A DNA stretch of 64,000 nucleotides, taken from the IMG/VR virus record IMGVR_UViG_3300036982_000125, positions 1 through 64,000 of that record, one strand, 5' to 3'. Source of the stretch: a virus. Taxonomy: Duplodnaviria > Caudoviricetes. The notes beneath the pieces are model-generated. The model ran no database searches. It was given only the letters and a program-made list of their open reading frames with translations, and had not been told where the DNA came from. The translations under genes and the position numbers were made by a program. This document shows, piece by piece, positions 382 to 59,319 of this stretch; position 1 is the stretch's first letter, and every line of letters starts with the position of its first letter.

Positions 382-2043
382 TTATGGAGTTACTCCTTCA
401 AAATATGTAAACACTGTATTCACACCTGCTATTGTTGTTGTTGTGCTAGTAGTTGGAGGGAAAAGTGTAGTAGTTGATGTAGTTATTACAGGATCATCAA
501 AACATCCTAATGCTGCCCAACCACCTTGTCCACAATTTGTACCTGAAAATGTTAACTGAGTATAATCAGAAGGTGCAGTTATAACAAATTCACCATTTCC
601 TTGACCAGTACTAGTTAATCCTGTAATTATATCATTACCTGAAACAGTCATTAAACAAGCAGTGTTGATTGTAATAGTTGGTGTACCACCATTTGTTGTA
701 AATCTATACTCATCACCAAAATCATTAGTCGATAATCTAAAAGGAACATTGTTTACTGGTGTTGGAAAAGTTAATATATAATTAAATGCTGGAGTGTCTA
801 ATGAACAAGTTCCATTTATTCCATTATATACTACTGAACCTGCTGGAACATACATACCAGTACATGGTTCATATCCTTCACCACTAACTCCACCATTTAT
901 ACCAAAGAAATTAGTACTACTAGCTTGAACAGTCATTGCCAAATAAGTAAAACTAACTGGACCAATATAAGGTCCTTGAAAACCACTTCTAAGTGTAGGC
1001 AATGCTGTAGGAGTACAATCAGGTGCGTATGGTATCAGATCTACATTTGAACAACCTCTTGATGCCCAAAAAGTTTGTGTATCAGAATATCCTAAACTTG
1101 AAGTTAATAAAGAAATACCATAAGGTGCATTTTGATCTAGTTCATAGAAATCAGAAGTCTCTGGATTATTTAAATAAATTACATTGTTCCATCCAAATAA
1201 ATCAAAAGCTCTTCTTCCAGTGTATCCAGGAGTAAAATCAATTGTATTTTGCACTTTTATTGTACCACTTTTCTCCCAAAGTGTAAAAACACTAGTAGGC
1301 ATTTGCCCATAGTATTCTGCTATGAAGTTTCCTACATTAGCTGCATTTGTATTAAAATCATGTCTAACACTAACAATTAAACTTCCTGAATTTGTATACG
1401 CAAGTCCTGTAAGTACTACAGTTATTCCAAAACTATTACCGCCAGGTCCAATACTTCTTTCTGCAACATAATTAGAAGAAGTTATTGTCAAAATAGGATT
1501 ACTTATGTCCCACCATCCTACTACTGCAACACTTGAATTTGATGAAGGTGTAGTACCTAAGTAAATATTGGTATCATCTATTGCAGCAATAATATATGGC
1601 TGTAATCGATTAGGACCAAAGTTACCAACAGGAATATCTCTAACAAATAAAAGACCTAATGTATCTTGCATTATATCCCACTCCTTAATTGTATTTGCTC
1701 CATCACCAATCCACAATTTATTATTTGTGGAAGCTTGCATTGTAATTCCTGTAGGTGTAGCAAAGTCATTTGGTACTGATATACTAACTGTTGTATTTGA
1801 TACAACATCATAAACATCTATTGAACCAACTGTATCTATATCTCTAGACCATACACAAGGTTCTGCACTTGGAAAAGCCAATGTAGTTGTGGTAGTAGTA
1901 GTAGATGAAGTAGATGTAGTTGTACTAGTGGTAGATCCACAGCCACCGCTTCTAATACAGATTAGTTCTTCTAATTGCTTAGAGATCTGCCAAAGAAGAT
2001 TGGTTGTTGTACTTCCACCTATTTGTCTACTTGGTATAGCCAT
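382..2043 (-). CDS. Virion decoration/fibre-like protein with MAIPSRQIG N-terminal module, two poly-Thr tracts and a probable beta-propeller-like middle region
   Basis: 553-aa ORF. Its N-terminus is shared with three neighbours; it carries STTSTTTSTSSTTTTTTT and PPTTSTTTT tracts and is rich in beta-strand-type residues. Confidence 0.55.
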   Translation of the reverse strand: MAIPSRQIGGSTTTNLLWQISKQLEELICIRSGGCGSTTSTTTSTSSTTTTTTTLAFPSAEPCVWSRDIDTVGSIDVYDVVSNTTVSISVPNDFATPTGITMQASTNNKLWIGDGANTIKEWDIMQDTLGLLFVRDIPVGNFGPNRLQPYIIAAIDDTNIYLGTTPSSNSSVAVVGWWDISNPILTITSSNYVAERSIGPGGNSFGITVVLTGLAYTNSGSLIVSVRHDFNTNAANVGNFIAEYYGQMPTSVFTLWEKSGTIKVQNTIDFTPGYTGRRAFDLFGWNNVIYLNNPETSDFYELDQNAPYGISLLTSSLGYSDTQTFWASRGCSNVDLIPYAPDCTPTALPTLRSGFQGPYIGPVSFTYLAMTVQASSTNFFGINGGVSGEGYEPCTGMYVPAGSVVYNGINGTCSLDTPAFNYILTFPTPVNNVPFRLSTNDFGDEYRFTTNGGTPTITINTACLMTVSGNDIITGLTSTGQGNGEFVITAPSDYTQLTFSGTNCGQGGWAALGCFDDPVITTSTTTLFPPTTSTTTTIAGVNTVFTYFEGVTP

Positions 2044-2046
2044 TAC

Positions 2047-3063
2047 TTAATAGTCTAATTTATATTTGTCTTTTATTTCTTTTAGCTTAGTAGCATAAAA
2101 CGATGTGCAATATTTCTTTGATTCTTCATGGTTAATCACAAGATCTAGGTTAGGATCTTTTGTTGGATCAGTTCCCATATGATATTTGCCTTTGTAGAAA
2201 GCTGGGTAACCATTTCCTGTTTCAGAAACTATTCCTGCATTATGAAAGATTGTATGTGTATCTAGTTTTGATATAGGATCTGTAGCCCATGCAAAAGCCA
2301 TTTCAGGAACCACCTTTGTTTCTTGGTCTCTCAACCAAATGTTCCAAAGAACAGCCCACATATCAGCACACCAGCTTTGGTATCCAGAATTTTCATCTTT
2401 AAAGAATTCTCTATTCACAGTTTGTAAATAGCTTCTTATAAGAATGCAATCATTCATCACCTTACTCCAGAAGTCACCATCTAAATTCTTTAATAGATAT
2501 TGTGCTCCTCCTGAATGATCATTATTAGCTTCACAGATTTCTCTGCTTATTCCTACAACACTTGCAATCTCTGCAAGGATGTCTCTGTTCTTATATTCTT
2601 CCAGCTTCTCTGGTAACACTTGATTAATCTTACTATCAAAATATTTAGCATTGATATAGCTGTTTGTATCAGATAGGTAGTTAATGTCATCTTCTAAAAA
2701 CTGTTCTAGATTGAAATCCTTCATAAAAAGAATATCTGAATCACAATAGAAGATTGCTTTCTCACTTAGCTCTGGATGTGCTTTGAAATGTTTCCAAAGA
2801 ACATATGGTCTAAGTACAGGAATATATATTCCTAACAATCGATTTAAGTTATCCTCATCTTCGTAATAATGAAACTCTGCTTCTGGATACAGGTCTTCTA
2901 TCTGTTTCCACTTATCTCTATTCTCTCTTCCTTTAGGTGTAAAGATAACTGATATAGCTTTATCAGAATGTCCTATTTCTTTTAGACTCTCTAACCATAA
3001 ATTCACTTGCCATGTATAATAAATATCGCTTGGACAAGCTTGTAAAAATTTTAAATCTTTCAT
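2047..3063 (-). CDS. GT-A fold glycosyltransferase resembling plant HPAT/peptidyl-Ser galactosyltransferase (GT95/GT96-like)
   Basis: 338 aa. N-terminal DIYYTWQVNLWLESL (compare plant YxxWQ), DxD motif FYCDSDILF (nt 2734-2742), and WCADMWAVLW (compare plant WxxEMY). Confidence 0.65.
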   Translation of the reverse strand: MKDLKFLQACPSDIYYTWQVNLWLESLKEIGHSDKAISVIFTPKGRENRDKWKQIEDLYPEAEFHYYEDEDNLNRLLGIYIPVLRPYVLWKHFKAHPELSEKAIFYCDSDILFMKDFNLEQFLEDDINYLSDTNSYINAKYFDSKINQVLPEKLEEYKNRDILAEIASVVGISREICEANNDHSGGAQYLLKNLDGDFWSKVMNDCILIRSYLQTVNREFFKDENSGYQSWCADMWAVLWNIWLRDQETKVVPEMAFAWATDPISKLDTHTIFHNAGIVSETGNGYPAFYKGKYHMGTDPTKDPNLDLVINHEESKKYCTSFYATKLKEIKDKYKLDY

Positions 3064-3090
3064 AATGTAGTTGGTTTTGGTTTTATATTT

Positions 3091-3234
3091 TTATAATGCT
3101 ATTGTAGTGGTTGTAGTTGTTGTTGTATTACATCCACCAGCTCTAACACAGATTAGTTGTTCTAACTGTTTAGAGATCTGCCAAAGAAGAGCTGTTCTTG
3201 TACTTCCACCTATTTGTCTGCTTGGTATTGCCAT
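3091..3234 (-). CDS. 47-aa mini-paralog: MAIPSRQIG module plus poly-Thr tail (absent from ORF track)
   Basis: Hand translation MAIPSRQIGGSTRTALLWQISKQLEQLICVRAGGCNTTTTTTTTIAL*, with an A-rich leader and TAA stop. Confidence 0.85.
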   Translation of the reverse strand: MAIPSRQIGGSTRTALLWQISKQLEQLICVRAGGCNTTTTTTTTIAL

Positions 3235-58050: not shown

Positions 58051-58064
58051 GTTTTTATAATAAA

Positions 58065-58107
58065 TATGCCAGAGGAATATGAGTAGTATCCTCTTTCCCC
58101 TGGCATA
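58065..58107 (-). terminator. 13-bp hairpin with alternative pairing; attenuator or partial terminator
   Basis: UAUGCCAGGGGAA/UUCCUCUGGCAUA followed by UUUAUUAU. Confidence 0.55.
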
Positions 58108-58140
58108 GGTTATTTAATAATATTTTACTTCTGCTTATCC

Positions 58141-59319
58141 TTAAGGAATGTTAGTAGAAGTTGTAGTAGTAGTAGATGCAGGAGCACTAGAAGTAGTAGT
58201 AGTTGTAGTGATACAAGGAGCACCTTGATCAACAACTGTACCTAATGCAGCAACTAATACAGTAGAAATTGCAGCAGAAATACCACTTGTTACAGAGTTT
58301 GGAGCAGCAATAATTACTGTAGAATCTTCTTGAATGTAATCACCCCATTGGTATGCAGATTTATCATACTCATTAAATTTAATGTAATATGTATCATAAG
58401 TTACACCAGTAGATACCCAAGATTCAAAGTTCTCGTTGTATCCATTCATTCTGTAAAGGTGTTTCAAATATCCAGCTTGGTAGCTATAGAAGTTTTTCTC
58501 TAATTGAGCAATTTCTGCAGATTGTCCTGTAGCATAAGAAGCACGTTGTGTGATGATTGGTTGAGCAACAAAGTTACAAGCATCTGCAACAATAAAGTCA
58601 GCAGTAGTAGCTGGACCAGCATATACAAATGTTCTAAAAGACATTCTGTCATATTCAAAAGGGAATGCAGCTACATCACAAGGTTGTCCATAGATAGTCA
58701 ATGGTTTTCCTGTAATACGTAAAATAGTTCCACCTACATTTTCAAATGTATAGAATGTAGAGAATGAAATGTTGTCAGGGTTGTTTCCTGGAGCTTTCAA
58801 GTTTAATTGATAAATCAATTCATTAATGATAGTGTTATCACTTACATCAGCACATGGGTTAGCATCACAATCACAACAAGGAGCTTGGATAGTTACTGAA
58901 CGAGTGAAACCATTAAAATACAATGTATCAATATAAGAAGAGTGAGCACGTAAAGTTAACGTGATAGTTTCTCCACATTGTACAGTGAAATTAGTTACAT
59001 CAGTAATTTGATTAGCCGCTGTTGGACATCCTGATACTTTGTACCATTCAGTTACATTAGATTTACAAGCAGTACCTGTTACGCATCCAGCAATTCTATC
59101 AGATCTTTTAGATCCTTGAAGATAAGTGTTAGTTCTTCCTTGAGCTACATAAAAGTAAGGACTTGCTAAAATAGAAGTAGCATCAACTGCAGAATATGCA
59201 CTGTTGAAGATACCTACTTGACCAGCTGTCAAGTTTTGTGTTGAAATCGAACCAGAGCTAGGGAGTGTTGTTTGCCCCACTGGAACCACGAAGAGCGTGG
59301 TTAATGAAAAATCAGCCAT
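58141..59319 (-). CDS. Auxiliary capsid protein-like, with C-terminal Thr-rich tail
   Basis: 392 aa; third gene after the MCP as in crAss-like phages; ends CITTTTTTSSAPASTTTTTSTNIP. Confidence 0.6.
   Translation of the reverse strand: MADFSLTTLFVVPVGQTTLPSSGSISTQNLTAGQVGIFNSAYSAVDATSILASPYFYVAQGRTNTYLQGSKRSDRIAGCVTGTACKSNVTEWYKVSGCPTAANQITDVTNFTVQCGETITLTLRAHSSYIDTLYFNGFTRSVTIQAPCCDCDANPCADVSDNTIINELIYQLNLKAPGNNPDNISFSTFYTFENVGGTILRITGKPLTIYGQPCDVAAFPFEYDRMSFRTFVYAGPATTADFIVADACNFVAQPIITQRASYATGQSAEIAQLEKNFYSYQAGYLKHLYRMNGYNENFESWVSTGVTYDTYYIKFNEYDKSAYQWGDYIQEDSTVIIAAPNSVTSGISAAISTVLVAALGTVVDQGAPCITTTTTTSSAPASTTTTTSTNIP

Follow-up and report, generated by a model that had tools for sequence, protein, structure and literature searches.

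The stretch of DNA analysed here, referred to as the window, comprises 64,000 nt (positions 1 to 64,000) of the IMG/VR virus record IMGVR_UViG_3300036982_000125 (Duplodnaviria; Caudoviricetes) and is part of a 75.6-kb viral contig with crAss-like gene order. It contains two glycosyltransferase (GT) genes, one encoding a soluble 338-aa GT-A enzyme (2047..3063, minus strand) and the other a 987-aa tri-domain enzyme (6286..9249, plus strand), together with a gene for a collagen-like tail fibre (11622..14030, minus strand) and a series of virion-module genes whose products carry runs of Thr and Ser. Comparison with related and unrelated phages suggests that these genes form two enzyme-substrate modules for O-glycosylation of the phage particle, in which the 338-aa enzyme would be paired with the poly-Thr tracts (module A) and the tri-domain enzyme with the collagen-like fibre (module B).

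With a tract defined as at least six consecutive Ser/Thr residues including at least four Thr, 21 tracts are found in 10 real open reading frames (ORFs) of the window, starting at 382, 3091, 3245, 3607, 44051, 53382, 53740, 54906, 56566 and 58141, all on the minus strand. When each protein was shuffled 500 times, the mean was 1.2 tracts and the maximum 5. A tract lies within 12 residues of the C-terminus in six of the ORFs, and in the remaining ones it is a linker between small, often Cys-rich modules. A first-pass annotation, made from the sequence alone, had counted at least 11 such virion-module proteins; ten of the 11 pass the rule, and the protein encoded at 9425 is Ser/Thr-rich with T4 runs only. 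Its remark that the tracts use mixed ACT/ACA/ACC codons is broadly right, the tract Thr codons being ACA (47%), ACT (42%) and ACC (10%), near Thr usage elsewhere in the window, but the mixing is not absolute, as identical-codon runs of up to 7 are present.

Four of the tract-bearing proteins are paralogues with a constant N-terminal MAIPSRQIG head. The gene for the first (382..2043, 553 aa) shares its strand with the GT-A gene, from which 3 nt separate it, and its product features an 18-residue S/T tract behind the head, a large variable body and two tracts near the C-terminus. The second (3091..3234, 47 aa) consists of the head and a C-terminal T8 tail, the third (3245..3598, 117 aa) has a Cys-containing domain and a C-terminal T7 tail, and the fourth (3607..4062, 151 aa) carries a TTTSTTT linker followed by a variable domain. 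Further along, the 1748-aa virion structural protein (44051..49297; phrog_37948, E 3e-108) has three S/T tracts linking small Cys-rich C-terminal modules, the 104-aa protein (53382..53696) ends in a 29-residue (ST)n/T7 tail, and in its 267-aa paralogue (53740..54543) modules are joined by two linkers, one T7S and the other an S/T stretch of 31 residues. A 172-aa Cys-rich/coiled protein (54906..55424) has four tracts of the T7 type, with the last at the C-terminal end, and a 270-aa Cys-rich modular protein (56566..57378) has two linker tracts plus a C-terminal T7 tail. The 392-aa protein (58141..59319), encoded two genes downstream of the capsid gene, bears the C-terminal tail T6-SS-APAS-T5-ST, which is kept in 10/10 genomes of the lineage.

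The 338-aa enzyme matches phrog_4417 (E 8.5e-55), and its AlphaFold2 model shows a GT-A fold with a predicted local distance difference test score (pLDDT) of 90.1 and an invariant D108-x-D110 motif. The top Foldseek matches are glycogenin, UGGT and XXYLT1, which are of GT8 type, and this likeness is at fold level only, given that the Pfam GT8 model PF01501 found no match on the contig at E<=10 while its controls were positive. Searches of the enzyme against Pfam and NCBIfam returned no match even at E<=10, and the DUF7164 model had no match on the contig. Membership in the plant HPAT/SGT enzymes (GT95/GT96), to which the first-pass annotation had referred, is not borne out: the Pfam HPAT model PF23452 had no match in 66 diverse relatives of the family, nor on the contig, a negative that is weak alone because the control genomes gave no match either, and the sole pointer to HPAT comes from 10% of one neighbouring ESM-Atlas cluster. 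A profile search expanded the family to at least 829 clusters, and longer relatives are fused to GT2, GT6, GT7C and GT29-like domains as well as methyltransferases, as one would expect of an enzyme that starts a glycan pathway.

For the lineage of the window phage, nine whole relatives were fetched, eight of them complete, which together with the window phage gives ten genomes. The 338-aa GT-A gene is present in 8/8 complete relatives, and MAIPSRQIG-head poly-Thr paralogues adjoin it in all nine. Beyond the lineage, tblastn revealed full-length homologues (28-35% identity) in 77 cultured-phage records, of which nine were examined (phiFL1A, R3.3, R9.1, VPE25, 1706, TPWB06, vB_SpsS-DH5, MA9V-3 and SAC12B). 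Poly-Thr tracts, mostly C-terminal tails, are located on capsid, tail or GT-adjacent paralogous proteins in eight of the nine, and the hosts of these eight are Enterococcus, Lacticaseibacillus, Lactococcus, Staphylococcus, Arcanobacterium and Chryseobacterium. The GT gene stands directly behind a capsid or major tail gene in the six annotated siphophages. In Enterococcus phage phiFL1A it directly follows the major tail protein gene, and long Thr runs close both the major tail protein and gp45, a protein annotated only as hypothetical that is likely the major capsid protein; the same tailed pattern, with the GT behind the capsid or tail-tube gene, recurs in Lacticaseibacillus phages R9.1 and R3.3, Enterococcus phage VPE25, Lactococcus phage 1706 and Arcanobacterium phage TPWB06. 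In the unannotated record of Staphylococcus phage vB_SpsS-DH5, ORFs immediately upstream of the GT contain Thr tracts, and in Chryseobacterium phage MA9V-3 the GT gene adjoins two paralogous proteins with very long S/T tracts, as in the window.

Phages without the GT-A gene were chosen for comparison by a major tail protein orthologous to that of phiFL1A. Seven such phages with orthologous major tail and capsid proteins, namely the three Streptococcus prophages Javan47, Javan505 and Javan311, Lactobacillus phages phiJL-1 and ATCC8014, Bacillus phage SPP1 and 'Aeromonas' phage AS1, showed no Thr tail and no tract in 16.5 kb of structural genes. R3.3 (with the GT) and phiJL-1 and ATCC8014 (without it) belong to one genus. 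Leptolyngbya phage Lbo-JY46, the nearest cultured relative of the window phage, has neither the GT-A gene nor any tract. Tracts are thus present in 8/9 carriers and 0/8 non-carriers (Fisher p ~4e-4, relatedness uncorrected), and poly-Thr tracts co-vary with the 338-aa GT-A, for which a role as the poly-Thr O-glycosyltransferase is proposed.

In two of the carriers, a small ORF overlapping or following the major tail gene is made up mainly of Thr runs, three or four in number (128 aa in vB_SpsS-DH5, an 88-aa open frame in TPWB06). It might extend the tail-tube protein through a frameshift, or else encode a 'tag-only' protein of its own, comparable to the 47-aa ORF of the window.

The 987-aa enzyme (tri-GT) combines a GT-A domain (aa 1-290, nt 6286-7155) and a GT4 domain (aa ~440-585, nt ~7603-8040), both proposed glycan extenders, with a BAHT/TibC-like domain (aa 660-985, nt 8263-9240), the proposed initiating O-transferase. 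Residues 660-985 match TIGR04414 (Aah/TibC) at 267.6 bits against an NCBIfam equivalog cut-off of 200, and match TibC (4rap) with an E value of 5e-50. Residues 468-582 match Pfam Glycos_transf_1 (GT4) at 39.2 bits against a gathering score of 26.4, and residues 1-290 are predicted to adopt a GT-A fold (pLDDT 89.7) with an invariant DxD, the top Foldseek matches being GT6 ABO transferases at a template-modelling score (TM-score) of ~0.5 and 12% identity, with no Pfam family at E<=10. Profile, fold and motif evidence for the two enzymes therefore confirms the earlier assignment of two GT genes, the second with three GT domains.

TibC employs Asp-110 as catalytic base, contacts the sugar through Thr-226, Lys-230, Arg-286 and Trp-305, and holds an iron finger formed by Cys339/342/358/370 (PMC4358343). 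Further features of the BAHT family are an N-terminal beta-barrel, a dodecameric ring and ADP-heptose as the donor. In the HMMER alignment, the equivalents of D110, T226, K230 and W305 are identical in the tri-GT, and the four-Cys iron finger is kept as C-x2-C-x15-C-x11-C. The position of TibC Pro-300 is occupied by Ser, as in Aah, and of the N-terminal beta-barrel of TibC only residues 61-97, the last third, align with the tri-GT. By sequence, the domain is thus a member of the BAHT family. No autotransporter was seen among the ORFs of the window. In phages of other lineages, a TibC domain nearly always shares a protein of ~680-1470 aa with further GT domains, and the neighbouring genes in these phages encode sulfotransferases, FkbM and other methyltransferases and, in one case, a weak GT2-like match. 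One phage also has a 760-aa ORF with Hint/intein domains near its TibC-type GT (locus L026, 15471-17750).

The 802-aa fibre, which the first-pass annotation had described as a (GTS)n fibre, proved to be a real collagen-like protein, matching Pfam Collagen PF01391 (E 9e-35, 118.7 bits) in 8 stretches with Gly-X-Y periodicity as well as PHROG tail-fibre families. Its X and Y positions are almost only Ser or Thr and include no Pro, giving a (Gly-Thr/Ser-Ser/Thr)n sequence. Residues in runs of at least three G[ST][ST] triplets number 156-372 in four TibC-positive genomes of the lineage versus 0 in six complete TibC-negative ones; in five of these six the sole collagen protein is a short one of the Gly-Pro-Gln type, and the other has no collagen-like ORF at all. 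A DNA-pattern scan of 18 lineage records located the GTS pattern in 5/5 TibC-positive records and in no complete TibC-negative genome. Among other phage lineages, 57/80 TibC loci have a collagen-like ORF within 10 kb, versus 4/80 capsid-centred control loci, and the X/Y positions of the collagen-like ORFs near TibC loci are 59% Ser and 30% Thr. The reverse test started from 42 IMG/VR records picked only by the DNA pattern (GGN WSN WSN)x8, and a TIGR04414 domain was found in 18 of them, 17 above the cut-off, including phages of 170-548 kb.

The poly-Thr tracts behave differently. The tri-GT is an accessory gene found in 2/8 complete relatives, and the six complete relatives without it keep 12-22 tracts each, in 6-11 proteins, so the tracts are independent of the TibC-type enzyme. 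Neither the Ser fraction nor the (ST)n blocks of the tracts differ by TibC status, tract residues amount to 211-364 in TibC-positive and 104-222 in TibC-negative genomes, and most TibC loci in other phage lineages have no poly-Thr tract nearby. The TibC-type tri-GT therefore co-varies with Gly-Ser/Thr collagen-like fibres and not with poly-Thr tracts, and this presence/absence contrast within the lineage reassigns the enzyme from the tracts to the fibre. The co-occurrence of GTs and poly-Thr tracts anticipated by the first-pass annotation accordingly holds for the 338-aa GT-A, with 8/9 against 0/8, and breaks down for the tri-GT, without which the tracts persist in six relatives, an outcome that satisfies, for this enzyme, the refutation named in the annotation itself.

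Between the genes for the tri-GT and the collagen-like fibre lies the gene (9425..11617, minus strand) for a 730-aa BspA-type leucine-rich repeat (LRR) protein with 29% Ser+Thr, identified by Pfam LRR_5 (E 1.7e-36) and a weak DUF285 match, which has no homologue in the nine close relatives. It would be a lineage-specific fibre or receptor-binding cassette, and it is a possible further acceptor. A perfect 10-bp hairpin (9233-9257), readable on both strands, marks the point where the tri-GT gene on the plus strand meets the converging fibre genes on the minus strand and is likely a bidirectional terminator. It was the only element to emerge from a sigma-70 promoter and terminator scan of positions 1-14600, whose promoter part was uninformative because promoter-like sites were fewer than in shuffles.

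On these grounds, it is probable that the phage carries two separate enzyme-substrate modules which act in the host cytoplasm and O-glycosylate proteins of its own particle prior to assembly or in the course of it. Two modules are preferred to one system because the tri-GT is missing from 6/8 complete relatives that keep the tracts. Module A, core to the lineage, would employ the soluble 338-aa GT-A to recognize Thr runs and to place on them a first sugar drawn from a host nucleotide-sugar, with the Thr runs serving as portable tags in the form of C-terminal tails or linkers on at least 10 virion-module proteins, including the four MAIPSRQIG-head paralogues. Module B, which is accessory, would use the TibC/Aah-like domain to add a first sugar, heptose or another given the one changed sugar contact, to Ser/Thr of the Pro-free collagen-like fibre, and the fused GT4 and GT6-like GT-A domains would extend this sugar to a short oligosaccharide. 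What we infer from the comparison are the acceptors, the donor sugars, the order in which sugars are added and the biological role, for which stabilization of the Pro-free triple helix, protease resistance, shielding and adhesion are candidates. Neither enzyme has a transmembrane segment and the acceptors have no obvious signal peptides in a simple hydropathy and N-terminus check, which fits cytoplasmic modification before assembly. Of the earlier proposal that the phage builds O-glycans across its virion, phage-encoded cytoplasmic O-glycosylation thus stands as the best reading of the comparative genomics, and its formulation as a single system does not.

The main rival to this reading takes the tracts and GTS repeats as plain unglycosylated linkers or spacers and lets the GTs act on host envelope glycans, for superinfection exclusion or receptor masking, or on phage DNA. 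It can point to the larger proteins, where most tracts lie between small Cys-rich modules, to the dispensability of the tri-GT in close relatives and to the literature, in which phage GTs are commonly linked to modification of DNA or of the host surface. The ninth GT-A carrier also speaks for it: Lactobacillus phage SAC12B (MK504446.1; Herelleviridae) has its GT-A homologue (29% identity) next to genes for holin and replication, and its 136-kb genome lacks any T7 run, so the GT-A family is not always tied to poly-Thr, and the SAC12B homologue may have a different acceptor. What plain linkers leave unexplained are the presence/absence patterns, namely why orthologous capsid and tail proteins gain poly-Thr tails only with an adjacent GT-A gene, and why GTS fibres within one lineage occur only with a TibC-type GT. 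BAHT is moreover a dedicated protein O-glycosyltransferase family, and six tracts are terminal tails that link nothing; the linker explanation is accordingly considered rather unlikely. DNA glycosylation was set aside on the grounds that the GT-A gene sits inside head and tail modules and tracks protein tails, although hydroxymethyl-pyrimidine synthesis genes were not searched for.

The proximity of both GT genes, within 7 kb of one genome, and the somewhat higher number of tract residues in TibC-positive genomes would suit one integrated system in which both enzymes work on one set of poly-Thr/Ser tracts across the virion to assemble a multi-sugar glycan. Such a system is improbable in view of the conserved tails and numerous tracts of the relatives lacking the tri-GT, the scarcity of tracts near the TibC loci of other lineages, and a tract Ser content that is unaffected by TibC status while the GTS runs differ absolutely. 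Bacteroidota have a general O-glycosylation system, and since the host is possibly a member of this phylum, host enzymes might glycosylate the tracts, in which case the phage GTs would be auxiliary metabolic genes with no connection to the virion. With acceptors that lack obvious signal peptides and assemble in the cytoplasm, and with tails that follow the phage GT across hosts of three phyla, this last explanation is very improbable.

Besides SAC12B, several points weigh against two glycosylation modules. All of the support is co-occurrence and homology, from samples of small size whose members are in part related. No tract occurs in the major capsid protein of the window phage itself. For module B, the heptose contact Arg-286 of TibC is replaced by Thr in the tri-GT, because of which the donor sugar may differ from that of TibC, and no gmhA was found in five TibC-positive records, the other ADP-heptose pathway genes not having been searched. 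The GTS pattern also occurs in two incomplete contigs in which no TibC gene was seen, their fibres lying at contig ends; many of the 80 TibC loci are near-duplicates; and 24 of the 42 pattern-picked records, mostly fragments or proviruses, have no TibC domain. Characterized BAHTs, finally, act on beta-helical autotransporters and not on collagen-like sequences (PMC4358343).

Regarding the genome as a whole, the major capsid protein gene (61348-62910, phrog_11589) lies in the window and the terminase and portal genes just outside it. The window also holds a block of small or modular structural genes, a homing endonuclease and several very large proteins, one of 4525 aa. A phmmer search against PDB sequences, aimed at placement in a solved crassvirus structure, returned no match for the capsid, 392-aa and 1748-aa proteins, and the capsid, muzzle and fibre placements of the first-pass annotation are accordingly tentative. 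Complete relatives are 111-119 kb long, some with terminal repeats, and at least 80 IMG/VR contigs encode this capsid protein with 94-100% identity, indicating an abundant environmental lineage. By terminase, the nearest cultured phages are Leptolyngbya phage Lbo-JY46 (40%), Cellulophaga phages (31%) and gut crAss-like phages (~26-30%).

The Bacteroidota host assumed in the first-pass annotation is weakly indicated, the hint being that 7/11 metagenome-assembled genome (MAG) contigs with this capsid gene were binned as Bacteroidota-type (Sediminibacterium, Cytophagales, Kapaibacterium, 'Bacteroidetes'). The MAGs holding whole or partial genomes of the phage lineage span distant phyla (Sediminibacterium, Cytophagales, Kapaibacterium, Aquiluna, Tissierellales, Clostridium), and at least some of these assignments must be binning errors. 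Several swapped C-terminal modules of modular structural proteins in three relatives have G-F-S-V-R-C/L-I-K-D-like ends, which we take to resemble the 'major paralogous domain' of Fibrobacter and Bacteroidota and which would then hint at a Bacteroidota-type host.

Other observations concern gene rearrangement. Two neighbouring ORFs match different parts of phrog_15100 (1783 positions): the 288-aa ORF at 43183-44049 only its C-terminal end (1588-1780), and the 1748-aa ORF (44051-49297), through its N-terminus, the start (12-479). The homing-endonuclease gene (42479-43180) directly adjoins the 288-aa ORF. The region 42479-49297 thus looks like a large structural gene that was split or re-assorted, with a mobile endonuclease alongside. 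Between structural genes, a 156-aa ORF (51492-51962) is missing from several relatives, and elsewhere it best matches the very ORFs that the homing endonuclease at 42479 also matches, so that it is probably a second mobile endonuclease-like insertion. A DUF5675 protein (5173-5568, E 1e-33) is encoded in a small-gene cassette between the paralogues and the tri-GT, the presence of which varies among relatives.

Literature searches found nothing on crAss-like virion glycosylation, poly-Thr tails or tags, BAHT enzymes in phages or glycosylation of collagen-like fibres in phages, in agreement with the first-pass statement that such a system is undescribed for crAss-like phages, and no paper was found on phage virion-protein glycosylation outside mycobacteriophages, a few of which are, as far as the searches showed, the only phages with experimental proof of it. 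New here is the presence of both modules in one crAss-like lineage, separated by a within-lineage presence/absence contrast. A wider generalization can be offered tentatively: poly-Thr may be a portable glyco-tag read by one GT family in phages of Bacillota, Actinomycetota and Bacteroidota, and many aquatic phages, jumbo phages included, may separately have recruited TibC-type enzymes for Pro-free Gly-Ser/Thr collagen helices in which sugars replace the stabilizing role of hydroxyproline, which would make sugar-coated virions common in nature and not peculiar to mycobacteriophages.

If a poly-Thr tag and one small enzyme suffice, the odd low-complexity tails of many phage capsid and tail proteins would be explained. 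The cultured phages phiFL1A, VPE25, 1706 and MA9V-3 would allow a direct test, and the pair would be a compact means of glyco-engineering in the bacterial cytoplasm. Glycans on the surface could affect how stable a phage is, how it adsorbs, which hosts it infects and how the immune system recognizes it in therapy, and a TibC-collagen link would broaden the substrate range of a family so far studied only as a modifier of autotransporter adhesins.

Among known systems, the closest established one, as far as it is described in PMC12619734, is that of mycobacteriophages Che8, Corndog and Myrna, in which glycans are attached to C-terminal extensions of capsid and tail-tube subunits (Freeman et al. 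2023, Cell Host Microbe 31:1216, via PMC12619734). By that description, phage-encoded GTs, C-terminal extensions and cytoplasmic modification by the virus itself are common to the mycobacteriophages and the window, where the glycosylation is predicted, and in the phages compared the acceptor extensions come and go with the phage GT (8/9 versus 0/8). In contrast to the system so described, the hosts belong to other phyla, the acceptor in the window is a nearly pure poly-Thr tag that serves as an internal linker as well, and the tags of the window phage are carried by accessory proteins of the virion module and not by the major capsid protein; the phrog_4417 enzymes were not compared with those of the mycobacteriophages.

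TibC and Aah (TIGR04414; PDB 4RAP/4RB4; PMC4358343) share with the tri-GT the catalytic Asp, the four-Cys iron finger and all but one of the four sugar contacts, and their cytoplasmic protein O-glycosylation on Ser-rich repeats resembles the proposed module B. The tri-GT differs in that the domain is fused behind two GT domains, retains a partial N-terminal barrel, has Thr in place of Arg-286, and co-occurs with collagen-like Gly-Ser/Thr fibres instead of an autotransporter. The nearest solved folds to the 338-aa enzyme, glycogenin, the UGGT catalytic domain and XXYLT1, are GT8-type retaining GT-A enzymes that act on proteins or protein-bound glycans and have the DxD in common with it, although identity is only 10-13%, TM-scores are 0.4-0.6 and the Pfam GT8 model does not match.

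Dedicated modification of collagen-like repeats is familiar from Bacillus BclA and from C. difficile BclA3 with SgtA, Thr-rich exosporium proteins whose repeats are O-glycosylated by a dedicated GT encoded nearby. Their repeats are of the Gly-Pro-Thr type and their enzymes are not BAHTs, whereas the window has repeats without Pro and a TibC-type fusion enzyme. Chloroviruses and other giant viruses likewise encode their own GTs for structural proteins and bypass the host secretory pathway, the difference being that they infect eukaryotes and use other GT families and linkages.

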